Below, piece after piece: positions 128 to 10,937 of a stretch of DNA of 59,643 nucleotides. Within the stretch, counting starts at the first letter, position 1, and every line of letters begins with the position of its first letter. The stretch spans positions 1 through 59,643 of the IMG/VR virus record IMGVR_UViG_3300025445_000001, one strand, 5' to 3'. The stretch is from a virus. Lineage: Duplodnaviria; Caudoviricetes. Made by a program: the position numbers and the translations under genes. The notes beneath the pieces were generated by a model that was given only the letters and a program-made list of their open reading frames with translations, searched no databases and was not told where the DNA came from.

Positions 128-823
128 CTGGGGAAATCCCCCCGACACACCCTTGAGTAGTGTAACCCCGGAGGTCCACATGGCCTGGGCAGGCCCAGCA
201 TACCCTTCTTTTTGCTGCGGGTCAAGGTAGCACCCGGCCACCAGACCCATCATCTTGTGCTTGCCCTTGCGCACCGCCACGTCCCAGATATGAGAGTGGC
301 CCATGATGCATGAGCGGTACTGCTTCTTGAGGAGGGTTGCGGCGGGGTACTCCCCACCCACGCTCTTCCCCATCACGCCCGTGACGAAGTAGTGGGAGGC
401 CGCCATCCCCTTCACCTCGTACTCCTCAAGGAAGGGCACCACCTCCCACCCATGGAGGAAGAGGTTGGAGGTGCTTAGGGTACCCTGCAACTCGGGGACG
501 TTGTCCAGCGCCCTGTCAATGCGGGCCTCGTGGTTCCCCATGAGGAAGACCTTCTTGCCCTTCCACTCCCCCAGGATGCGCAGCGCCACGTTGGCAGCCT
601 CGATGTCGGCAGCTACCGTCCTGCCATCAAAGGAGGCCTTGCGCTTCCCACTCCCCGTGAGGCTACTGCCATCATAGCTGCTGAGGGAGGGCATGTCCGC
701 CAGATCCCCAAGGCAGAGGAGTATGTCGGGGGAGGTGTCCTGCAGGTACTTGAGGAGCCAGCGGAAGCGGCGGGGGTTGACCCCCGGGCGGGCGTGGCTA
801 TCCGGCAGGACGAGGATGTTCAC
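77..823 (-). CDS. Calcineurin-like metallophosphoesterase
   Basis: Motifs DSH, GDLAD, GNHE, SH and GHSH in canonical order; GTG start overlaps the upstream TGA. Confidence 0.85.
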   Translation of the reverse strand: MNILVLPDSHARPGVNPRRFRWLLKYLQDTSPDILLCLGDLADMPSLSSYDGSSLTGSGKRKASFDGRTVAADIEAANVALRILGEWKGKKVFLMGNHEARIDRALDNVPELQGTLSTSNLFLHGWEVVPFLEEYEVKGMAASHYFVTGVMGKSVGGEYPAATLLKKQYRSCIMGHSHIWDVAVRKGKHKMMGLVAGCYLDPQQKEGYAGPAQAMWTSGVTLLKGVSGGFPQDGWEFISTRSLENTYG

Positions 824-2988
824 TTGAAGACCTCCTTGAGACTGGGCAGGTCCTGCTTCTTGTCCCCCAGGATGAGTTTCCAGATGGTGGGACCGATGCC
901 CTCACCGTAGCACCACACGCGGAAGCCCATCTGCTTGGAGTTCTCGAAGAAGTACTGGGCATCCTGCGAGGCGGCAATGAGTTCCCCCGTGCTCCAGAAC
1001 TTCTTGCCGGTCTGCCCGATGGTGATCTCCATGTACTTGGGGCGGCCCTGCTCGTCCTTGGCCTTCTTGTCGATCTGCCCCTCGGGGTAGCAGAAGTCAA
1101 AGCCAAAGAGGTGGAACTCGCTATACCCCAAGGACTGCGCGAGGGAGAGGGCCCTCCACGCAGCACACGTCCCCCCGTTGATGAGGAGGGACCCTTCGGG
1201 AAAGACCTCGCTCTTGATGAGGGCCTGCGTCATCGCATGCCAGCCCCACACGTTCTTGGTCTTTGACATGACGTGCCGGGTGACGCTGGGATCGGACATC
1301 GAGGCCACCAGCACCTTGGTGCTTGGGGGGATATCCTCCATGAGATCCTTGCGTTTGATCCCGTGGGTAGAGATACCGGCAACGTCGCGGGGATCCAGCA
1401 GCACCAGATACTCGGGGTCCACGCCCCAGCTCACCACCGTGGGAAGGGAGTGCTTCACCACCGCGATGTCGGCACCCTCGCGCCACATCTTGATGATCTT
1501 GTCCCTGCGCTTGTGGATGTCGGGGCCCGCCGACACGATGACCAGCTTGCGGTCATGGGGCTTCGCCTTGGTCACCCACCGCGTCAACAGGCCAAGGTTC
1601 TCCTTGACGTTGTTGATGATGTGGTCCTTGGGCATGCAGTCCTGGGCCGTAACCTTGAGGGGCATGGCGCCCATCCCGGCAGCAGGGAGATCCGGGAGAC
1701 CGTCACCCACCGCCGCGATGTTGACGATGCCCCCTCCCTGCACCGCATCCTTGGACTTGTAGACCTTCTTGTCGCGGAGGATGGTGGTGAAGACAGCCTC
1801 CACTCCACGGAACTCGGCAGCGGGGATGCCGCCGTTGTTGTCCGGGGTGTAGTAGTCGTCGAAGACCACGACCGGGACCCGCTTGCATTGCGCCCAATCG
1901 TGTGCGATGGTCGCCGCCGAGTGGCCGCCGTCGAGCCACGCGAAGTCCACGCCCAGCATCTCGCGCAGCGTATCCTTCGTGTCCCCTCGATGGAGATGGA
2001 ACTCGAAGTGCTTGCCCTTCTCCTTCATGGCGGCGGCGAACTCGTTGAGCTTTGCCGTCACCTCGTCGAGGGAGTAGTGCTTCTTGACGTTGTGCTCCTT
2101 GGCGTCGGTATCCGCTGACGCCTCCTCGAAGAGGTCATAGCCGTGATAGACAACGTGATCCCATTTCGCAAACGCGACCTGCGCCATCTGCATAGCACGG
2201 TCACCGTTCCAGGTTCCGGTTTCGAGGATGACTCGTGGCATGTAGTGCTGGACGAGCGCGAGGAGCTGGTCATAGCGGGTCTTGAGGCCCTGGACAACCT
2301 TGGTCTTTCGGTTACCCTTGAGATGTACGAACACGTCGTTGATCGAGCTATGTTCGAAAGCGTCGAGTCCGACATACTCGGGATCGACAAGGTTGTGGGC
2401 TTCAAGCCCGTGAAGCTTGTGAAGCTGGAGGACACGCTCGAAGATGAAGGCGTCGGTCCATTCGCTGTAATTGAAGATCTCCCCGGTCATGTACAGGTCG
2501 TACATGTCGGCGATGAGGGTGCGCCCCTCGTTACCGGCGAAGTAGATGAAGCCGGTCTCGCTGTAGTTGATGCCCTTGCGCCCGAGGTGGGTGATGTGTC
2601 CCTTGCAGATATTGCGCAGCCACTCCAGGGTGAGGGGCTTGCGAGTCACCACGTCCCCGTCGAGCCAGAGGAAGGGGCTCTCGTCCATGGCGGCATCGTG
2701 GAGGGCGAAGACCTTGGCGCAGAACTTCAGTGCATCCAGACGGTAGTTGTATCCCTCAGGGGTTTCCCCATTCTTGTCCGGGTGCAGGGAGCGGAAGGCA
2801 GTGAATCCTTCCACCTCCTCAAGCCTCTTGACGGTGATGGCCCTATGGTCGCATGAGACTTCCGATGGATCCATCCCGTCCACGTAGATGGTGAGGGAGA
2901 TGTTGGAGTCCCACAGGCGCGTGGAATCGAGGAAGTTCTTGCCGTAAAGGTCCCAGCCCTTCGGCCCCCAGGAAGTAACGATTCTCAT
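820..2988 (-). CDS. Three-domain fusion: GT-A glycosyltransferase, class I SAM methyltransferase, Maf/MptE-like (DUF115-type) domain
   Basis: WLDGD DxD motif; ILETGTWNG...GDT...LDGGHS...FDDY; VIVSAGPD...LDP...GGT...LGYSEFHLFGFDFCY. Start moved to 2988 because of the ATGA overlap with the upstream stop. Confidence 0.75.
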   Translation of the reverse strand: MRIVTSWGPKGWDLYGKNFLDSTRLWDSNISLTIYVDGMDPSEVSCDHRAITVKRLEEVEGFTAFRSLHPDKNGETPEGYNYRLDALKFCAKVFALHDAAMDESPFLWLDGDVVTRKPLTLEWLRNICKGHITHLGRKGINYSETGFIYFAGNEGRTLIADMYDLYMTGEIFNYSEWTDAFIFERVLQLHKLHGLEAHNLVDPEYVGLDAFEHSSINDVFVHLKGNRKTKVVQGLKTRYDQLLALVQHYMPRVILETGTWNGDRAMQMAQVAFAKWDHVVYHGYDLFEEASADTDAKEHNVKKHYSLDEVTAKLNEFAAAMKEKGKHFEFHLHRGDTKDTLREMLGVDFAWLDGGHSAATIAHDWAQCKRVPVVVFDDYYTPDNNGGIPAAEFRGVEAVFTTILRDKKVYKSKDAVQGGGIVNIAAVGDGLPDLPAAGMGAMPLKVTAQDCMPKDHIINNVKENLGLLTRWVTKAKPHDRKLVIVSAGPDIHKRRDKIIKMWREGADIAVVKHSLPTVVSWGVDPEYLVLLDPRDVAGISTHGIKRKDLMEDIPPSTKVLVASMSDPSVTRHVMSKTKNVWGWHAMTQALIKSEVFPEGSLLINGGTCAAWRALSLAQSLGYSEFHLFGFDFCYPEGQIDKKAKDEQGRPKYMEITIGQTGKKFWSTGELIAASQDAQYFFENSKQMGFRVWCYGEGIGPTIWKLILGDKKQDLPSLKEVFK

Positions 2989-3746
2989 TTGTAGAGGTCC
3001 ACCACATGTTTCCAGTTGAAGAACTCGTGTTCGACAAGACGGCGCTCTGCCTGCCAAGCGGCAGCGTAGGGGACATCCTTGTAGTTGGCGAACCACGGGC
3101 CCCCGTCAGTGAAATGCACAGCCTTCGGGCTCTCGTAAGAGTAGCGCGTGGTGGGACTGTGGTATGGAAGCCAGTTCCACGTCTCGTCGATTTCCCCTAT
3201 GGAGTCCGTCCACTCGAAACCGTGCAGCCACGACCCCTTCTGTGTGTTGACTGCTTCGAGGTCCAGCTTCCGGCAGTGGGGGTGCAGCGGATTCAGAACC
3301 ATGAGGGAGGACCACAGTTTACGCTGGTACTGCGTCTGCGCCACCCCGTCCATCTTGACGGTTTCTTTGGGAACAAACTTGTGCTTCACCACCGAGACTG
3401 CCACATCGGGGTCGCAGAACTGGAGCATCTTCTTGATGTCATCGAAGAAGAGGAAGTCGCAGTCCACGAAGACCACCAGGTCCTCTATTCCATGCCGCTG
3501 GGCGATGTGAGGCACAAGGAAGCGCGAGAAGGAGAACTCCGTAGAGAACGGCTTCCCGTCCCCCACGTCGATCATCTGGTTGCCTTCCCGATAAGATGTG
3601 CGCCAGTACTTCCCTGCAGCCTTGAGGGAATCCAGCTTGAGGGGGGTGACAATGCAGGGGACGCTACAATGCCGCTTGATGCTATGCGCGGCTACCTTGT
3701 AGGCGATGTCCTCCCGAGAGTCATAGCCAATGAAGATGTGCAGCAT
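2985..3746 (-). CDS. GT8-like (CDI-type) nucleotide-sugar glycosyltransferase
   Basis: IFIGYDSRE, STEFSFSRFLVP, FVDCDFL (DxD), KLWSSLM, HFTDGGPWF. Confidence 0.85.
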   Translation of the reverse strand: MLHIFIGYDSREDIAYKVAAHSIKRHCSVPCIVTPLKLDSLKAAGKYWRTSYREGNQMIDVGDGKPFSTEFSFSRFLVPHIAQRHGIEDLVVFVDCDFLFFDDIKKMLQFCDPDVAVSVVKHKFVPKETVKMDGVAQTQYQRKLWSSLMVLNPLHPHCRKLDLEAVNTQKGSWLHGFEWTDSIGEIDETWNWLPYHSPTTRYSYESPKAVHFTDGGPWFANYKDVPYAAAWQAERRLVEHEFFNWKHVVDLYK

Positions 3747-3781: not shown

Positions 3782-3927
3782 GACTTTTTGTTGAAGAGGT
3801 CGAAGAGGGTCTTGATCTTCTCTTCTACCACGGCCAACCTGTTGTCCATCTTGGCAAGGAGAATGACGAGGGTGACGAACCCCAGGCCCAAGGGCCAGAG
3901 GCGCGATACGATCTCGATGAAGTCCAT
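3778..3927 (-). CDS. Small single-TM protein (49 aa), not in the ORF track
   Basis: MDFIEIVSRLWPLALGFVTLVILLAKMDNRLAVVEEKIKTLFDLFNKKS; GAGGA RBS and TAATG overlap with the upstream stop. Confidence 0.7.
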   Translation of the reverse strand: MDFIEIVSRLWPLGLGFVTLVILLAKMDNRLAVVEEKIKTLFDLFNKKS

Positions 3928-6812
3928 TATTCCTCCCGTAGCCTGCGAGCGTACTCGGGGCGCACGGACTTCGGCACGTCCTCAAGGTTCTGCGGACGAC
4001 GGTACTCCTGCACCTTCTTGGCGATGCTCTTCTGGAAGGAGTCGGGATCCTGGACGATGCGGTCCCTGAGGGGCCTGCCCTTGTCGTATTGGGCAACCTC
4101 TCGCCGCAGGCGCTGGGCCTCCTGCCTGTAGGAGGGATCCCCGGTCTCCAGGGCACGAGCCTGTGCGGTGGCGATGCTATCCGCATAGGACTTGCGTATG
4201 CGGTCCATGCGCTGGCCCAGATCCTTGGTCTCTTCCTTGGCTTCGCGGGCCTTGGCCACCTCGGTGGGGGTGAAGCCCACGGCCACCTTGCCGAAGTCCC
4301 GGACGCCCTGCAGCTCCTTGGCGGGGAGAACGGGCTCCATCTTGCCAGGGGTAACGTAGCCAAGTTCCTGCATGGTGACGGCGCGGGCCACGTTGCGGAA
4401 GGCCACGGGCAGCAGGGAGGCAAGCGCCATGAGGGGCATGCCCTTCTGCTGGTACTTGTAGGCTTCCTCGGCACCACCCACCACCGCGCCCATGAGGGGA
4501 CCCATGTTCATGAGGTCCATGGTGAGCATGTTGTTGAGGTTGAGGTCGAGGGCCGTCCTCTTGGATATGTCAACACCAAGGGCACGGAAGGGCCCGTTGA
4601 GCACGTAGTCGGCCAGCTCCGCCGGGGTACCCATGAAGCTGAGGGAGGGCACCTCCTTGAAGAACTGCTGCATGGTTTCCCGGAGCTGGGACTTCAAGGC
4701 CGTGGGGCTCATGCCAAGGTAGGGGCCCACCATGTTGGTGAGCTTGTCGATGAGGTCCCCGGCAGGTCCAGCGAAGGGCAGGCCCCACAGCCCCGCCGTG
4801 GCAAACACCCCCAGGAGCATGAGGCCAAGGACCTTCTTGCCCTCGTCGGTGGACATGATGCCCTTGCCACCGTAGTACTCGGCGGCTCGGCGCATGAAGC
4901 CCAGCATCTTGAAGGGGAAGGTGGCGAACTGGAAGACGAGGCCCGGGACAAGGCCGTGCATGTACTGGGCACGGAAGGGTTTCGACATGGAGAACTGGGT
5001 TTCCTCCACGGCGAACTTGGCCGCATCCACCCGGTCATTGACCTCCTGCCCCACGTTCCTGGCGAACTTCTGGATGCGCTGGAAGGCAGCCTCGTTCTTC
5101 GCCATGCGGTATGCAGCAAGGGCGGTGCTGAGACGGTTGATCTGCTCGGCCATGGAGAAGGGCAGCGAGAAGGCTTCGAGGACCTTGCCCGCCTTCTGGC
5201 CCAGCCCGTAGACGGATTCGATCTGGGACTGCGCGAGGAGGGAGCCAGCCTGGTCACGAGTGAGGAGGGCTTCCGCGTAGCCGCTGCGGAAAAGCTCCTT
5301 GATCATTTCCTTCTCGTCCTGCGTGACACCCGACATCTTGTCCACGTCGAGGATCTTGTCGGGATCCAGGGAGAACTTGATGTTGCGCATGATGGTGGTG
5401 GTGGCGATGCTGAGTTCCTTCACCGCATTGCCCGTGCCGCCCACGCCCCCGAGGAAGGGCACCGTGGTGTGCAGGAGCTGGGTGAGGTTGACCAGCGCGG
5501 AGGACAGGTTACCGCCAAGGGTATAGAGGAAAGCCACGCTCTTGAGCTTGGCCACGAGGGCCTCGTTGCTGTGGAGGTACTGCTCCTGCTTCTCCGCGAT
5601 GATGCGCAGCTTGGGATCCTGGATCTTGGAGATAGCAGCCCGGCGGGTTCCCTCCGTGGCCTTGTTGGCAATCCAGTCCGTCATCTGGTAGGAGAAGGGC
5701 GCGAAGGTACTGCGGAAGTAGGTATCGTAGTTGTCCTCGCGCAGCCATCCGGGGATGTTGTACCTCTTGCGCAGGCGCGGCTGCTTGCGCTTCTCGGCCT
5801 CCACCTTCATGCGCTTGAGGATGTCCGCCACCTGCTTCTGCGGATCATTCTTGTTGGGCGTCATGATGGCCTGGAAGAGAACGTCGATGCGGTCCATCTC
5901 GTTGCTGGAGGGCAGGTACAGGTCGTAGAGTTCCTGCTCGGCCTGCAGGTCCCTGAGCTTGATGGTCTGTACGCCTTCCTTCTTGAGCTGGGCCATGCGC
6001 GCCTCGGCCTTGGCGCGGGAACTCTTGAGGGCGGGGAACCTGTCGAGGGCGGGAAGTCCGTCAGCCAGCACCGAGTCATACGCCTCGATGTGCTTCTGGT
6101 CCCCGATGTAGTACTCCACCGCCCATGCACCACGGCGCACCTGCGGGAAGTAGCCCTTGCGTCTGGCGTTCTCGATGCTGCGCAGCACGGAGGCGGCAGC
6201 CATGTTGTCGTCCTTGAGCTTCTGGGTCTCCTCCTCGTTGCGTCCCTGCACGGGGAGGTTCTCGATGTCGCTGATGGACATCGCAGGGTCGAAGCCGAGG
6301 GAGGCCTTGACGGAGGATATGACGTTGTCGTAGATGTCGTCAAGGATGACTCGCACCTCGCGCCGCAGTGCGTTGAGTTCTTTTGGCAGAGTGACGATGT
6401 CCCCCGTCTTCGATCCCACGTGGTCCTCGGTGGCGACGATGGAGGCGCTGCCATCGGGGTTCTCCGTGGCCAGGGTCTCCTCGGCGTTCTCGATCTCCAG
6501 CATGCGCATCATGTCGCGGGACTGCTTGGAGGAGAGCGCCGCCACCTTGCGCATCACGGGCTGGTACCTGTGCCCCATGCGCGCGCGCAGTTCTTCGCCC
6601 AGCTTGAGGGCCTTGACATAGGGACGCAAGGCCGGGAAGCGCGTGGCCAGGTTGTCGATGCTGATGAAGCCGCTGAGGTAACGCTGCGCGTTGCTCATGA
6701 GCTTCAGCAGGGAGGGCTGCAGGTGGCCAGCTTCGATGAGGGAGCGAAGCTCCACCACCTTGGCGAGGGTATTGTCGATGACCCCAGAGCGGGCCGGATT
6801 GCATACCGTCAT
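3927..6812 (-). CDS. Large internal virion/ejection-type protein (961 aa)
   Basis: Helical protein with a hydrophobic segment (LMLLGVFATAGLWGLPF); last gene of the internal-protein block. Confidence 0.65.
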   Translation of the reverse strand: MTVCNPARSGVIDNTLAKVVELRSLIEAGHLQPSLLKLMSNAQRYLSGFISIDNLATRFPALRPYVKALKLGEELRARMGHRYQPVMRKVAALSSKQSRDMMRMLEIENAEETLATENPDGSASIVATEDHVGSKTGDIVTLPKELNALRREVRVILDDIYDNVISSVKASLGFDPAMSISDIENLPVQGRNEEETQKLKDDNMAAASVLRSIENARRKGYFPQVRRGAWAVEYYIGDQKHIEAYDSVLADGLPALDRFPALKSSRAKAEARMAQLKKEGVQTIKLRDLQAEQELYDLYLPSSNEMDRIDVLFQAIMTPNKNDPQKQVADILKRMKVEAEKRKQPRLRKRYNIPGWLREDNYDTYFRSTFAPFSYQMTDWIANKATEGTRRAAISKIQDPKLRIIAEKQEQYLHSNEALVAKLKSVAFLYTLGGNLSSALVNLTQLLHTTVPFLGGVGGTGNAVKELSIATTTIMRNIKFSLDPDKILDVDKMSGVTQDEKEMIKELFRSGYAEALLTRDQAGSLLAQSQIESVYGLGQKAGKVLEAFSLPFSMAEQINRLSTALAAYRMAKNEAAFQRIQKFARNVGQEVNDRVDAAKFAVEETQFSMSKPFRAQYMHGLVPGLVFQFATFPFKMLGFMRRAAEYYGGKGIMSTDEGKKVLGLMLLGVFATAGLWGLPFAGPAGDLIDKLTNMVGPYLGMSPTALKSQLRETMQQFFKEVPSLSFMGTPAELADYVLNGPFRALGVDISKRTALDLNLNNMLTMDLMNMGPLMGAVVGGAEEAYKYQQKGMPLMALASLLPVAFRNVARAVTMQELGYVTPGKMEPVLPAKELQGVRDFGKVAVGFTPTEVAKAREAKEETKDLGQRMDRIRKSYADSIATAQARALETGDPSYRQEAQRLRREVAQYDKGRPLRDRIVQDPDSFQKSIAKKVQEYRRPQNLEDVPKSVRPEYARRLREE

Positions 6813-6815
6813 GTC

Positions 6816-9800
6816 TTACCCACAGGAGATATCTTCGGCAAAGGCTTCACCCCCACGCATCTGCTTGTCGAAGCGTTGCTGCATGGTATCCACGATCTTG
6901 CGGCTGTCCTCAGGGAAATCCTCGGGCAGGATGAGACCGGGGACTTCCCCCTTCTCCTGGTCCCGCATGAAGTCAACGAGGCTGCCGGGTGCTATCCGTC
7001 GAGTTTCGGCAGCGGGAGCTTCCTCTTGCGCCTCTCCTGCAGTGCGGCCTGGAAGTCCCTCTGGGCGTCCTGCTTCTCCCGAGAGGGAGGAAGGGTCTTC
7101 AGTTCCCGCCAGAATTCGCTCAAGACCTCCGGGGGACCCAAGGGATTGGGCATATCGATAGTATACGCCCCTGTAATCTTTTCCTGCATCGAATGCTTTC
7201 CTTAGTTTGGATTCCTCTTGGGGGTAATTGTCAAAATGCTTTTCAAGCCAGGTCTCGGCTTCAGCGGCAAAGTCATCCAGTATCTTGTCTACGTTCAAGT
7301 TGTACTTGCGGTAGAACTTTTCCAAGTCGGAGAAGCTCCCGCCGGGAGTATCCTCCAACGCTTCAGTGTAGTGGATCATGCCGGTGCGGGCAAGCATCAA
7401 GTTGGCTAGGCGAGTTGCAAACTCCCAGCGCCTTCCGTCATCAGCAACTCCATCTGCCAAGTCAGGAGTGATCTTTATTGAGGTATCATAAGCCATCATG
7501 CTCAGCGTACCCATGGGAATGTAGTAGTCAACGCCCATGAGTTCGTTGGGCTTGATTGCAAAATACGTGTTGCCATCAATGCTTCTGACTGCATTGACCC
7601 TTTGATATCTCCTGCCATCACCGGAAAAATTACGAAGGTCGCCCTTTGAAAAGGATGTGTTGTCAGGATGAGAGTGTACGTACATGGCCTTGTTGGTGGG
7701 ATCCAGCAATTGCCTTGCAATCTTGTCGCCCGAGTACACCGAAGAGGTGTTGCCGTCCGTGACAACGTCGATCAGTCCTCCGTTCACGTCAACTGCAAAA
7801 GCATGTTCCTTGCCTGTGCGCCGAGTTTCCGAAGAAAGATACGCAAGCATGTTCTTCGCATTGGTATCAAACGGAAGGTTCTTGCGGTACACGTACAGAG
7901 CTGCTTCATTGCGCAGCTTGCTGCCGAACAGGACATTCTTTCTACCGAGAGGAAGCTCGCCCGGCCAACCTGCCCAAGTATCTGACGCGATGGTAGGTTT
8001 CTCGCTTGGAATGCGATCCACCACAAGCGTATTGTTTCTGGCAAGTAGGAGTTCAATCTCCTTCAAGTACGAAGCGTACTTGTCAAGATTGAGTTCCGGA
8101 ATAGCTTTGAGGATCTGGTCTTTGCCTACAACCTTTACGTCAAATACTTTGCTGTTGTCGTCAAGAATGCGTGCAACATCTTTGGGAATTATCTTGATGG
8201 GCTTGCCTTCAGTGATGGCTCCCAGGATGCCTTGCTTTCTAAAGTACTCCCTAATTGCGAAACGTTGTCCAATGTTGGCGATATCGTCTATCTCGGCCAA
8301 GGAGACGATCTTTTCCCCAAAAATCTTTTCGTTGAGCGCGACGTTATCTTTGAGTTCCTGTGGGACAGGATCCTCTACGACCGCTGCTCCCAGGGATCGC
8401 AGGTACGCGGCAATTGTTTCGACATCCCCATCCTGCCTGAGGGAAGGGGGCACCTTCTCAAGTCTTTGCTTGATCTGATCGTAGGTGGCAAACTTTTCCC
8501 TGTTGACTATAGCCACGAGACGTTGAATATTGTAGTCTTCAAGTAGCGGGTTTGCCGGTTTGATTGCAGGAACTTCCTGTGCCGGTGGAACTTCGGGTGC
8601 AGCAGGCTTAGGTGGTGGAGTCTCTGCCGCAGGGGTTGAAGGCTCCGGCGTTGGAGGCGTATCCACGATAGCGATGCCTGCCGAACTCAGCTCCTGCAGA
8701 AACGCTTCAATCGTTTCGACAGATACCTTTTCGAGATTCGGGACAGAAGCATTGATCTCGTCAAAAGTTATATAGCCGCGCTGCTTTCCGAGATCATAGA
8801 GGGTCTTCAAGCCTGGATCGTCCAGCGGGGAAGCCACGGGTGTCGGGGCAGGCGGCTCGACTTGCACCGGAGCGGGTGTCGGGGCAACAGCCGTGGGTGC
8901 CGGGGTAACCTGAGTCGGGGGTTCCGGGGCTACGGGCTGCGCTGCAGGCTGGGTGGCGGGGATGTTCCCCGTGCCTGGCCAGGTGTTGTTGGAGATGATG
9001 TCGTAGGCTTCCTTGCCCGACATGGTCTCGATGTCGGAGGGCTCGTAGCCCATCGCGAAGAGACGCTGGCGCATCTTGCGATCCACCTGCATCGGCTCCA
9101 CGCGCTGCCAGTAGGGGCCCTTCTGTACGACGAGGCCTTCCCGCTCAAGCATCTTGAAGAGCTTGGGCACGGAGGTGGGATCCTGGATCTCCCGGCCCAG
9201 TGCCTTTTCAAGCCACCGCTTCTGCAGCTTGGTGTCGGGCTTCTCCGCGTTGAGGGCCTCGGCCAGCTTGGGATCGCGGCGAACGTCGAAGGCTTCCTTC
9301 TCGGCATCAGTGGTGAAGCGGAAGAAGGCACCCTTCTGCACCACCTCGCCCTCTGCCACGAGGCGCGCAAGGACTTCCTTGTTCTGCTCCGGAGTGGTTT
9401 GCAGGCCAAGCTCTGCAAGGAACCCGGGAGTGAACATCTGGTTGGCATCCCGAGTACCCTTGTTGGTAGTGGGGATGTTCTCAAGTACGGTGCTGTAGAT
9501 CTCGGAGATGGCATCAGGAGCGGGACCCTTGGGCACGGGAGGCGGGGTCTCGTTCATGAACTCGTAGGCGCCGATCTCCGGGATGTCCTTGATGATCTCG
9601 GGATCTTCGTCCAGGGAGAGCTTGATGTAACGCTCGAACTCCTGGGGGCTCATGTTGACAAGGGCGCCTTCCTCATCGGTGCTGAGGTTCTGGCGCATGG
9701 CCAGCTTGCGCTTGATCTTGTCCGTGATGGGAGCCTCGGGACCCAGCAGCTTGGCGGGGTCGTACTCCCGCGCAGCGGCATAGGCCTCGGGGAGCTGCAC

Positions 9801-10937
9801 CGCACTGAGGTAGGCGGCGCGCTGGCTCTCGATCTTCTTGGTCTCGGCGGCCCGCTGCTGCGCCGTGATGGCTTCCTGCTCGGCCTTCTGCTCCTCGGCC
9901 TGGCGCTGCTGCTCCTCCTCGGCACGGGCGGCACGACGAGCACCATAGGCCCCGGCAGCACCACCTATGGGCGCGGCACCGATGCCACCCTTGAGGGCGG
10001 AGTCCACCACTTCCTTCCAGTTGAAACTCTTGTCCGCGAGGACGTTGACTGCAGCCTGGTCGAGAAGTTCCTGTGCGCCCTCGGTCAAGCCCTCGGTGGC
10101 AGCAGTCTCAAGGGCACCGGCAAGGGCACCGCTCCATCCGGGCCTGCCCTTCAGCAGCTTGGAGGAGATGAGGTTGGTGAGCCTGTCGCCCATCTCCACG
10201 CCCTGCGTCTTGCGCAGCAGCATCACGGGAGCGATGGAGTCGAGGGCACTCTTGAGCGAGCCTACCGCGAAGGCCACGCCGGGACGCAACTGCTGCGTCT
10301 CATCGTAGATGTTGGCAAAGGACTCGGGGATGTTCTGCAGGCCAGAGCCCACCATGGCACCAGCGGCGGCGCCGATCTGCTGGCTCACCTGCTGCATCGC
10401 AGCGGCGTAGGCAGCCTCCTTGGTGACGGTCTGGCCCGCAGCCTGCGCGGCACTCTCGATGGCAGCGGCCCGCGAGGCAACGAGTCCGGTGGCGGCCCTT
10501 CCCGCAGCGAAGCGAGTACCCAGGGCACCCACGCCCACGCCCGGGATGAGTGCCGTGGCGATGGAGGGAAGTGCCTGTCCGAAGGCCTCCGCACCGTAGT
10601 CGTAGAGGGTACCTAGGCTGTTGACATCCTCGTAGGACATCTTGGCCTGGAGACCAGCCTTGTCAAGGCGGTCCATGCGCTCCTTGTACGCCTGCAGGTT
10701 TGCCCTTGCAGCATCGTCGTAGCCAAGGGCAGACTGCGCCATGGCCGGGAGAGCCTCGCTGAGGAGACCCTTGGTCTGCTCCCACCCCGTGGCAAGGCCC
10801 CTCGTGAAGGCACCGGGCCCCTCGGGGTTCTTGCTGGGCACCCAGTCCATGCCATCCCACTCGATGACATAGGCACCCGGAGTGTTCTTGAACGGGACGT
10901 ACTTGCTACCATCCCATTCATACTTGGTGTCGGCCAT
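6816..10937 (-). CDS. Large multidomain internal virion protein (1373 aa) with sigma-70 R1.1-like repeats and a JAB domain
   Basis: Ala/Gly-rich ejection-type N-terminus, Pro-rich linkers, LKTLYDLGKQRGYITFDEIN, E...HSHP...S..D. Confidence 0.75.
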   Translation of the reverse strand: MADTKYEWDGSKYVPFKNTPGAYVIEWDGMDWVPSKNPEGPGAFTRGLATGWEQTKGLLSEALPAMAQSALGYDDAARANLQAYKERMDRLDKAGLQAKMSYEDVNSLGTLYDYGAEAFGQALPSIATALIPGVGVGALGTRFAAGRAATGLVASRAAAIESAAQAAGQTVTKEAAYAAAMQQVSQQIGAAAGAMVGSGLQNIPESFANIYDETQQLRPGVAFAVGSLKSALDSIAPVMLLRKTQGVEMGDRLTNLISSKLLKGRPGWSGALAGALETAATEGLTEGAQELLDQAAVNVLADKSFNWKEVVDSALKGGIGAAPIGGAAGAYGARRAARAEEEQQRQAEEQKAEQEAITAQQRAAETKKIESQRAAYLSAVQLPEAYAAAREYDPAKLLGPEAPITDKIKRKLAMRQNLSTDEEGALVNMSPQEFERYIKLSLDEDPEIIKDIPEIGAYEFMNETPPPVPKGPAPDAISEIYSTVLENIPTTNKGTRDANQMFTPGFLAELGLQTTPEQNKEVLARLVAEGEVVQKGAFFRFTTDAEKEAFDVRRDPKLAEALNAEKPDTKLQKRWLEKALGREIQDPTSVPKLFKMLEREGLVVQKGPYWQRVEPMQVDRKMRQRLFAMGYEPSDIETMSGKEAYDIISNNTWPGTGNIPATQPAAQPVAPEPPTQVTPAPTAVAPTPAPVQVEPPAPTPVASPLDDPGLKTLYDLGKQRGYITFDEINASVPNLEKVSVETIEAFLQELSSAGIAIVDTPPTPEPSTPAAETPPPKPAAPEVPPAQEVPAIKPANPLLEDYNIQRLVAIVNREKFATYDQIKQRLEKVPPSLRQDGDVETIAAYLRSLGAAVVEDPVPQELKDNVALNEKIFGEKIVSLAEIDDIANIGQRFAIREYFRKQGILGAITEGKPIKIIPKDVARILDDNSKVFDVKVVGKDQILKAIPELNLDKYASYLKEIELLLARNNTLVVDRIPSEKPTIASDTWAGWPGELPLGRKNVLFGSKLRNEAALYVYRKNLPFDTNAKNMLAYLSSETRRTGKEHAFAVDVNGGLIDVVTDGNTSSVYSGDKIARQLLDPTNKAMYVHSHPDNTSFSKGDLRNFSGDGRRYQRVNAVRSIDGNTYFAIKPNELMGVDYYIPMGTLSMMAYDTSIKITPDLADGVADDGRRWEFATRLANLMLARTGMIHYTEALEDTPGGSFSDLEKFYRKYNLNVDKILDDFAAEAETWLEKHFDNYPQEESKLRKAFDAGKDYRGVYYRYAQSLGSPGGLERILAGTEDPSSLSGEAGRPEGLPGRTAGEAQEEAPAAETRRIAPGSLVDFMRDQEKGEVPGLILPEDFPEDSRKIVDTMQQRFDKQMRGGEAFAEDISCG

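Follow-up and report, generated by a model that had tools for sequence, protein, structure and literature searches.

Several described systems resemble, each in part, the locus reported here. In the available sections of the respective reports, phage polyvalent proteins are long, virion-associated multi-domain proteins with exchangeable effector modules (PMC5512222), MuF polymorphic toxins hold their toxic domain in a C-terminal "toxin slot" with a short open reading frame (ORF) at once behind it (PMC5576092), and Tox-JAB toxins are divergent JAB domains that act as delivered effectors and have a cognate immunity-type protein (PMC3482391). Here, we analyze the 59,643-bp viral genome IMGVR_UViG_3300025445_000001 (the window, i.e. 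the whole stretch of DNA), in which the 1373-amino acid (aa) protein P0001 very probably contains, at residues ~1020-1278, a divergent JAB/JAMM (MPN+) domain, assigned at superfamily level, and in which a predicted 65-aa gene, P0017, is embedded in another frame of the same carrier gene. The JAB superfamily, effector-immunity pairs, and polyvalent proteins are all known kinds; the surprising element is the overprinted partner gene.

The phage domain shares its predicted fold with the minimal prokaryotic JAMM/MPN+ peptidases and Cap3 (PfJAMM1 5ld9, AfJAMM 1r5x, Cap3 9ild of CBASS, and the Bil deubiquitinase 8tyy; structural Z 5.6-7.1), and has the same E / HxH / S..D residues in the same secondary-structure positions. 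It differs from them in its low identity (~10-14%), in the 6 residues that separate HxH from S, in an insert of ~60 residues with two helices, and in a helical extension of 80 residues, and it lies inside a structural protein, with a dedicated small partner, rather than in a ubiquitin-like protein (Ubl), E1/E2, or CBASS operon. The gene setting is not that of CBASS Cap3 either, as the carrier belongs to a late structural block and the PADLOC scan returned no such match. The best sequence likeness is to RadC, around the HNHP motif, and RadC too is delivered with invading DNA in polyvalent proteins. However, every phage member scores below the RadC cut-off in Pfam, and the structural match to RadC is at Z 4.8. 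RadC is listed, in the available sections of PMC5512222, solely in polyvalent proteins from conjugative elements, whereas the phage JAB family is found beside the phage-only domains InPase and ddrB-ParB.

With the Tox-JAB toxins, as far as PMC3482391 is available, the locus would share a divergent JAB domain serving as delivered effector together with a cognate immunity-type protein, and a weak Toxin-JAB1 match. It differs from them in the score of that match (15.6 bits vs 21), in a carrier that is a virion protein and not an RHS or secreted toxin, and in an unrelated partner of ~55 aa that starts with ID-P-P-x-P-F. The likeness to MuF toxins lies in the position of the domain, which fills the C-terminal slot in 9 of 10 mid-size carriers scanned, and in the small ORF at once behind. 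By contrast, P0001 has no MuF domain (no match in Pfam and PHROG scans), and its small gene lies within the gene of the carrier, in a different frame. The available sections of PMC5576092 make no mention of JAB. The Ct_MAD domain that they describe is probably different from the phage JAB domain, because it is tied to the C-terminus of COG2369 and because PMC5512222, in its available part, calls the C-terminus of Mu F a PBECR domain. P0001 fits the description of a phage polyvalent protein, as seen in its 1373 aa, sigma region 1.1-like module, JAB domain, Pro-rich linkers, and ejection-gene surroundings, and two relatives (L014 and L018) are textbook examples of such proteins. The available sections of PMC5512222 nowhere mention immunity proteins or overlapping genes, and searches of titles and abstracts on phage JAMM ejection proteins, deubiquitinase or RadC anti-defence, Ct_MAD, and embedded immunity genes yielded no description of the arrangement.

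The P0001 gene occupies positions 6816-10937 on the minus strand, as given by its ORF and translation. A preliminary description of this DNA had proposed a JAB/MPN metalloprotease domain from peptides that are indeed all found in P0001 on the minus strand; the first residue of TGKEHAF is 1041, with its codon beginning at base 7817, that of HSHPDN is 1088 (7676), and that of SKGD is 1097 (7649). The full motif on this strand reads E1044 ... H1088-S-H1090-P-x5-S1097-x2-D1100. The putative catalytic Glu, E1044 (codon 7806-7808, minus), is invariant in all three alignments (A1, A2, and A3) and was absent from the pattern used to scan for relatives. The putative metal ligands H1088-S-H1090 (7668-7676, minus) lie at the end of a strand, are invariant, and are aligned to the HNH of RadC 2qlc, while S1097-K-G-D1100 (7638-7649, minus) start the next helix, with S and D invariant and D present in 19/19 viral loci. 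The JAB/MPN core comprises residues 1020-1200 (7338-7880, minus), as delimited by AlphaFold models, structural matches, and sub-threshold Prok-JAB and Toxin-JAB1 matches, and the whole module extends from ~7880 down to 7104. The interval proposed earlier, 7540-7860, corresponds to residues ~1027-1133 and includes all five motif residues, but it covers only the N-terminal two thirds of the domain.

By chance, the pattern H.H.{5,8}S..D arose in 5 of 20,000 residue shuffles of P0001, and the window, translated in six frames (119,282 residues), contains it 4 times; of these, the occurrence in P0001 alone is in a gene with relatives. Conservation of the motif is a stronger argument than these counts. 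E, G, H, H, P, S, and D occupy invariant columns (10/10 and 23/23) in alignments of 10 (A1) and 23 (A2) sequences with identities of 20-30% (~25% for the 23 relatives), and the set E, H, H, S, and D is unchanged in 23/23 and 24/24 sequences. The 19 viral loci were obtained by a pattern scan of viral contigs, so among these only E, G, and D represent independent conservation, because HxHP...S belonged to the scan pattern. The distance from HxH to S is 6 residues in every member, the textbook JAMM spacing being 7. The complete JAMM set recognized in the preliminary description (E1044, H1088, H1090, S1097, and D1100) is intact and, given its invariance in 23/23 sequences, stands as proposed; with the full E / HxH / S..D set in place, the domain is a probable Zn-dependent hydrolase.

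Two AlphaFold models were obtained, one for residues 975-1260 (predicted local distance difference test [pLDDT] 75.9, predicted template modelling score [pTM] 0.76) and another for residues 1020-1310 (pLDDT 86.8, pTM 0.84). In both, HxH closes a beta-strand and S..D opens the next helix (strand E65-71 and helix H79-85 in model 2). The top Foldseek matches in the PDB are all JAMM proteins (best E = 7.2e-3). Comparison of both models with 48,161 chains by VIA-align gave top matches at Z 6.9-7.1, with a root-mean-square deviation (rmsd) of 3.5-3.8 over 113-115 residues; these include Cap3 9ild (Z 7.0, rmsd 3.5, 115 aligned) and PfJAMM1 5ld9 (Z 6.9-7.1). Rows 1-18 for model 1 and 1-22 for model 2 are JAMM/MPN proteins or complexes thereof, bar one unnamed structural-genomics entry. 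Sst2, Rpn11, CSN5, BRCC36, BubCD (5.1-5.2), and a bacterial Ubl-deubiquitinase (8tyy, 6.0-6.3) are found at Z 5-6.3, RadC at Z 4.8, and cytidine-deaminase-fold proteins from ~Z 4.3 downward. The predicted fold is therefore MPN-like in both models by Foldseek and VIA-align, which is not the outcome that the preliminary description had named as refuting its proposal. A search of BFVD added 17 matches at E <= 1e-3, of which 8 are named "Minor capsid protein". Because the list of structural matches is uniform and the motif invariant, the assignment to the JAB/MPN superfamily is secure at that level, and the suggestion that P0001 carries such a domain holds on both fold likeness and motif.

Sequence searches agree with this placement at a distance. 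The scores of Prok-JAB (PF14464; 12.3-15.4 bits vs a cut-off of 25, over a 24-residue stretch only) and Toxin-JAB1 (PF15659; 14.4-15.6 bits vs 21, profile positions 6-77 of 87) are below threshold, and RadC (PF04002) does not match the domain of the window. Among the 23 members, however, the only recurring Pfam families are those of the JAB clan, all of them sub-threshold, i.e. RadC in 7/23 (best E = 8.9e-4; listed scores 14.3-17.4 bits vs 22.1), Toxin-JAB1 in 2/23, and Prok-JAB in 2/23. The best sequence match in the PDB is RadC 2qlc (E = 0.006), with HNHP aligned to the HNHP of the family, and ESM Atlas gave leads below 0.9 for the named clusters Prok-JAB, Phage_min_cap2, DUF4329, and Toxin-JAB1. 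A PIG-L/LmbE (MshB) reading of H-x-H-P-D was also considered, given an A1 match at E = 0.003 over 40 residues. This match disappeared with the larger A2, no PIG-L structure is among the 50 VIA-align matches listed for either model, and the domain has ~70 residues, including a conserved Glu, ahead of the motif; the reading was set aside.

Relatives are few. A phmmer search of 1.84 billion cluster representatives (E <= 1e-3) returned 11 proteins, of which 9 were kept; the other two (P0004 and P0010) are Calx-beta-type repeat proteins that match query residues 147-223, outside the catalytic motif, in 13 and 10 stretches, and were dropped before alignment. A homologue search with P0002 at near lengths and a metagenome scan with P0002 found none. 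The tblastn search of 50,697 phage records with P0001 gave no match at 1e-5, and the L005 domain as query matched a single phage record, Ruegeria phage 45A6 (L021, KT820175.1). This is the only cultured phage found with the domain, which it carries in a "hypothetical protein" of ~3900 aa.

The relatives place the domain in three settings. It forms the C-terminus of proteins of 470-730 aa, 9 of the 10 scanned having head-morphogenesis or minor-head (MuF/SPP1 gp7-type) N-termini, and in 12/19 viral loci it is the sole cargo on a head protein of 470-680 aa. P0011 carries an SPP1 gp7 domain. It is also found in the giant polyvalent proteins L014 and L018 (both >3839 aa), together with InPase, PBECR1, methylase, SNF2 helicase, and LPD39 domains, and the ~3900-aa protein of Ruegeria phage 45A6 belongs to this setting too. 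The third setting is podovirus-type proteins (P0003, P0005-P0008, L002, and L003), where it lies beside ddrB-ParB, as in L002, or sigma region 1.1-like modules. From these settings, we infer that the JAB domain is a cargo module that phages attach to head-packaged proteins that are expelled with the DNA.

The domain has a companion in nearly all of these loci. Behind the MuF-type genes there is a conserved ORF of 52-69 aa that starts with [IL]-I-D-P-P-x-P-F followed by a helix, and in 9/14 of these loci it starts exactly 4 nucleotides (nt) before the stop codon of the JAB gene. For a search with a hidden Markov model (HMM) built from eight such downstream ORFs, the window and loci were divided into 5810 stop-to-stop fragments. 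The HMM matched only directly behind the JAB domain, i.e. in 16/19 viral loci, in Ruegeria phage 45A6, and in the window (E = 2.4e-4), with no off-target matches among the 5810 fragments and none on reversed sequences. An independent HMM, built from four other embedded ORFs, matches the ORF of the window at E = 3.7e-9 (1 of 1040 window fragments, none on reversed sequences) and retrieves the MuF-type ORFs as well.

In the long carriers (the window, L002, L003, L014, L018, and L021), the partner is embedded inside the big gene, and the shift is +1 alike in L002, L003, L014, L018, and the window. The embedded gene of the window, P0017, lies at 6992-7189 on the minus strand, as indicated by the HMMs and the translation, and is read in the +1 frame relative to P0001 over codons ~1250-1315. 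An AAGGAA Shine-Dalgarno-like site, read from the sequence, is located at 7198-7203 (minus), 8 nt before the ATG, which spans an Asp codon of the main frame. L002, L014, and L018 likewise have AAGGA-type sites ahead of their embedded ORFs. In the Ruegeria phage 45A6 record, the partner ORF (6692-6865 of the locus) is unannotated. All 65 residues are retained in P0017 relatives with identities of 97% and 85%. Its relatives fall into 12 clusters, all "hypothetical", two of these from Alphaproteobacteria (Kaistia and Zavarzinia); Pfam has no family for the 9 small ORFs scanned, and ESM Atlas returned nothing for the small protein.

Comparison of L014 and L018 bears the signature expected of dual coding. 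Codons for the same amino acid differ at 7/51 positions within the embedded ORF compared with 1345/3003 in the whole gene (Fisher P = 2.7e-6), and synonymous differences amount to 36-60% in every other 204-nt window of the pair that was examined.

The complex of the two products was predicted in three runs, for which the JAB module (262 aa) was supplied as an alignment of 24 rows and P0017 as one of 16 rows. The interface score ipSAE was 0.88 (median of the 3 runs), compared with 0.46 for the best of three controls; in calibration, the mark for this score was reached by 58/80 solved complexes and by 2/110 mismatched pairs. Contacts agree between runs at >=95%, and the pLDDT of the partner is >=86. 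Residues 4-18 of P0017 run along domain residues 44-52, and residue 12, an Asp, touches domain residues 25, 71, 78, and 81, i.e. E1044, H1090, S1097, and D1100. As these four contact the same partner residue, they cluster in the model, and H1088 (domain residue 69) is in the predicted interface too. Asp12 is the only invariant column in the alignment of the small proteins. The model supports binding of P0017 to the JAB domain, with its N-terminal stretch predicted to lie in the substrate groove and Asp12 on the catalytic residues.

The small ORF behind the domain had been missed in the preliminary description, and with it the picture becomes that of an effector and its cognate inhibitor. We put about even chances on a delivered JAB hydrolase effector that is held inactive by a cognate active-site inhibitor until ejection, because the layout fits that of MuF toxins and their immunity proteins, i.e. 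a catalytic domain in the cargo slot, a coupled small ORF, and an invariant acidic residue on the catalytic center. We infer the metal binding, catalysis, inhibition, delivery, and substrate class of such an effector. Phages would attach the JAB module to minor head proteins of MuF/SPP1-gp7 type, to giant polyvalent proteins, or to podovirus ejection-module proteins, and the module would travel with its own partner gene, either as a separate ORF with a 4-nt overlap (MuF-type) or as a +1-frame overprint on the linker (long carriers). In the producing cell, the late mRNA would give rise to both proteins, with the small one keeping the hydrolase shut. The carrier would then be packaged and expelled without its partner, or stripped of it, and, once in a newly infected cell, the free enzyme would act on a peptide-like substrate; a peptide or an isopeptide is favored because the inhibitor is posed as an extended peptide. 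A fuller version is possible, although we hold it only tentatively as a whole. It describes a mobile effector-immunity cassette carried in frame in injected proteins, with the immunity gene overprinted in +1 on a disordered linker and a pseudo-substrate Asp on the zinc, whose freed peptide-directed hydrolase would disable a host protein, possibly of a Ubl-type defence, within seconds of the onset of infection.

Other explanations share parts of this evidence. The JAB domain could be a self-processing protease with a safety catch, which would cut the carrier after ejection and free the region 1.1-like and other modules while the small protein blocks premature cutting. According to the available sections of PMC5512222, peptidases built into polyvalent proteins are presumed to divide them into units; L014 has no zincin peptidase at E <= 0.01 and yet has the JAB domain, the modules are flanked by Pro-rich linkers, and an inhibitor made alongside the enzyme fits the need for a whole chain. 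We nonetheless find this unlikely, as there is nothing to release in the 12/19 viral loci whose head protein of 470-680 aa carries no other cargo, as P0016, a close relative of P0001 that lacks the cassette, presumably works without it, and as the conserved PGG stretch of the module is predicted to be folded rather than an exposed site, its conservation coming at least in part from the overlapping gene. An injected deconjugase, as first proposed for this locus, would strip Ubl or CD-NTase conjugates of Bil, Bub, and CBASS Cap2 at DNA entry. All biochemically characterized structural matches are (iso)peptidases of Ubl tails (Cap3, 8tyy, and BubCD), and the extended segment of the partner has a predicted position in the groove like that of a Ubl tail. 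On the other hand, Cap3 is tied with the archaeal PfJAMM1, so the fold singles out no defence enzyme, and nothing beyond the likeness to the Cap3 fold (Z 7.0) points to Ubl conjugates or CBASS, the PADLOC scan showing no JAB-related match. Moreover, an enzyme that only removes host defence tags has no obvious need for a cognate inhibitor, and searches of titles and abstracts found no report of a phage-encoded enzyme of this kind. The anti-Ubl idea is thus one special case of a delivered JAB hydrolase, without specific support, and we rate it as rather improbable.

The nearest sequence families, RadC (7/23 members; 2qlc at E = 0.006) and Toxin-JAB1, would instead fit a RadC/Tox-JAB-like toxin that acts on nucleic acids and is neutralized by its immunity protein. 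JAB toxins are accompanied by immunity proteins, Imm65 and Imm-NTF2-2 among them (PMC3482391), and more than half of MuF toxins are nucleases (PMC5576092), in the sections available of both. Against such a toxin, the structural match to RadC is weaker (Z 4.8) than those to peptidases (Z 6-7), the predicted pose of the inhibitor as an extended peptide in the groove suggests a peptide-binding cleft, and, to our knowledge, no JAB domain has been demonstrated to be a nuclease; its chances appear low to us. Finally, inactive MPN domains are common, and 65-codon ORFs in alternative frames are frequent at 61% GC. The domain might therefore be a plain or decayed MPN module with no partner, 6992-7189 (whose translation is a prediction) being untranslated and its likeness to the small ORFs a relic of a cassette once in frame. 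This has only a slim probability in our view, given that all five catalytic residues are intact, that the embedded ORF keeps its ATG, the AAGGAA 8 nt upstream, and all 65 aa in relatives at 97% and 85% identity, and that it matches an independent profile at E = 3.7e-9 in a layout that shows suppressed synonymous change in L014/L018.

Several points weigh against a delivered effector with its inhibitor. At the level of the domain, no Pfam, NCBIfam, or PADLOC family is above threshold for it, no Foldseek match in the PDB reaches E <= 1e-3, and the structural Z scores are below 8, a middling range in which, by the caveat of the tool, a match may reflect a common arrangement. The definers of RadC and Tox-JAB argued for a nuclease and not a peptidase, in the available sections of PMC3482391 and PMC5512222. 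As for the partner, 3/19 loci (L015, L017, and L020) have no partner ORF match, and in L009 (6969-8774) the partner sequence continues the JAB protein in frame at its C-terminus, a fusion that fits a simple trans-inhibitor less well. The test of dual coding comes from the L014/L018 pair only, and translation of 6992-7189 is predicted from its start codon, Shine-Dalgarno-like site, homology, and intact relatives. The complex was built from custom alignments, with one control reaching 0.46, and since solved complexes of JAMM enzymes with Ubl tails exist, the pose may partly be model memory. The small protein could also be a chaperone, cofactor, or substrate instead of an inhibitor, and why the enzyme would have to be kept silent in the cell that makes the phage is not obvious.

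If the effector-inhibitor reading is true, a JAB clade that lies outside every current family model, with 9 relatives among 1.84 billion cluster representatives plus 19 viral loci, would join the cargo that phages deliver with their DNA. Effector domains in giant phage proteins could then carry a hidden antidote gene in another frame, which would explain how harmful enzymes are safely produced as parts of structural proteins. Gene callers would systematically miss such partners, as with the unannotated ORF of Ruegeria phage 45A6, and the predicted pose of Asp in the active site would represent a natural peptide-like inhibitor scaffold for JAMM enzymes.

Within P0001, the JAB module is part of an accessory cassette at residues ~800-1281 (480 codons; 7095-8541, minus), recognized from its absence in the relative P0016 and from its lower GC. 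Besides the JAB module, the cassette contains a second region 1.1-like repeat, another domain, and, of the embedded gene, the 5' half, and TGAAGAC direct repeats are located exactly at its borders (8535-8541 and 7095-7101, minus). P0016 (903 aa) is 84% identical to P0001 over 800 aligned positions, with residues 1-663 nearly the same and the last 94 at an identity of 95%, and its junction where the cassette is missing reads NPLLED|PSSL. The 3' half of the embedded gene lies beyond the cassette border, in a stretch that P0016 keeps at the protein level, and this persistence suggests that P0016 arose by deletion. To judge from sequence comparison, the JAB cassette is accessory, exchangeable cargo outside the ejection machinery, because the near-identical P0016 lacks residues ~800-1281. 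Base composition agrees with what had been noted about an AT-richer segment, as GC is 0.52-0.54 at 7001-9000 compared with ~0.62 around it and, by residue, 0.45-0.55 over P0001 ~700-1250 compared with 0.58-0.73 elsewhere. The placement of the domain in a lower-GC, exchangeable segment of a large late-block protein is supported.

The core of the domain is followed by a helical extension (residues 1201-1278; 7104-7337, minus) and then by a disordered linker, as seen in model 2, where helices H183-191, H197-218, H220-248, and H252-258 have a pLDDT of 87-98 and residues 263-289 fall below 50. The extension ends in S-L-G-S-P-G-G-L-E-R-I-L, a helix-turn-helix cap found 161-183 aa after HxHP in 10/10 long-type proteins with the domain. 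Part of its conservation is explained by the second frame that overlies it. The consensus S-[LIF]-[GR]-x-P-G-G was considered as a JAB cleavage site and rejected, as model 2 folds the stretch as helix-turn-helix (pLDDT ~87-90) and it overlies the ID-x-P-x-P of the embedded gene. On the other side of the domain, all long-type relatives share a short stretch, W-x-x-[LMW]-P-[ALVG]-G (P0001 ~985-1000; ~7940-7990, minus), that lies ~45-60 residues before the catalytic Glu and just after the Pro-rich linkers, and is predicted to be disordered (pLDDT ~30).

Upstream of the cassette, residues 709-763 (8649-8813, minus) form a sigma-70 region 1.1-like module (PF03979, E = 1.3e-14, 54.3 bits vs 22.5) that also matches the structure of RpoD region 1.1 (2k6x, E = 4.5e-5). 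The module is present in P0003 and P0006, with a divergent version in P0016, and a second look-alike was spotted by eye at P0001 ~797-855. Farther toward the N-terminus, residues ~500-612 (~9100-9440, minus) contain two look-alike stretches that end in G-E-V-V-Q-K-G-A-F-F-R-F and G-L-V-V-Q-K-G-P-Y-W-Q-R-V and that may be winged-helix-like repeats. Similar stretches occur in P0007 and P0008, and a faint SelB-wing match was found in P0003 only.

The window represents a complete, podovirus-like viral genome with direct terminal repeats at its ends, and the best match of its large terminase to a cultured phage is to that of Pelagibacter phage HTVC027P, at an identity of <=41%. The N-terminal ~340 aa of P0001 are virion-structural-like, with hydrophobic Gly/Ala stretches, and the middle of the protein consists of exchangeable modules with Pro-rich linkers between them. 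The PHROG families phrog_6958 ("virion structural protein") and phrog_2206 ("virion RNA polymerase") match residues 37-159 (E = 3.7e-7) and 102-373 (E = 1.2e-4), respectively. The gene is flanked by a DNA ejection protein gene and a 961-aa gene, all within the late structural and ejection block, and farther upstream this strand also encodes the tail fibre, adaptor, and capsid. Given the PHROG matches of its N-terminus and its ejection-gene surroundings, P0001 appears to be part of the virion as a podovirus ejection-module protein.

The 961-aa gene (3927-6812, minus) has matches limited to the C-terminal parts of giant phage proteins. With phrog_11358, the match covers positions 2878-3422 of 3431 (E = 6e-40), and there is another with a DarB-like antirestriction family (E = 1.9e-8); judged from this product it looks as if a polyvalent protein is split here over several genes. 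At the end of the late block (820-3096, minus), a 758-aa protein carries MptE-like (PF01973, E = 5.7e-17) and methyltransferase (PF13578) domains. The C-terminal ~95 residues of P0001 (6816-7100, minus) form a conserved tail that ends in ...D-I-S-C-G and could serve as a packaging or anchoring signal. The SCG ending is common to P0003, P0007, P0008, and P0014-P0016, while P0005, P0006, and the L002 ORF end instead in ...P-F-S-C-R-V-[RK]-[RK].

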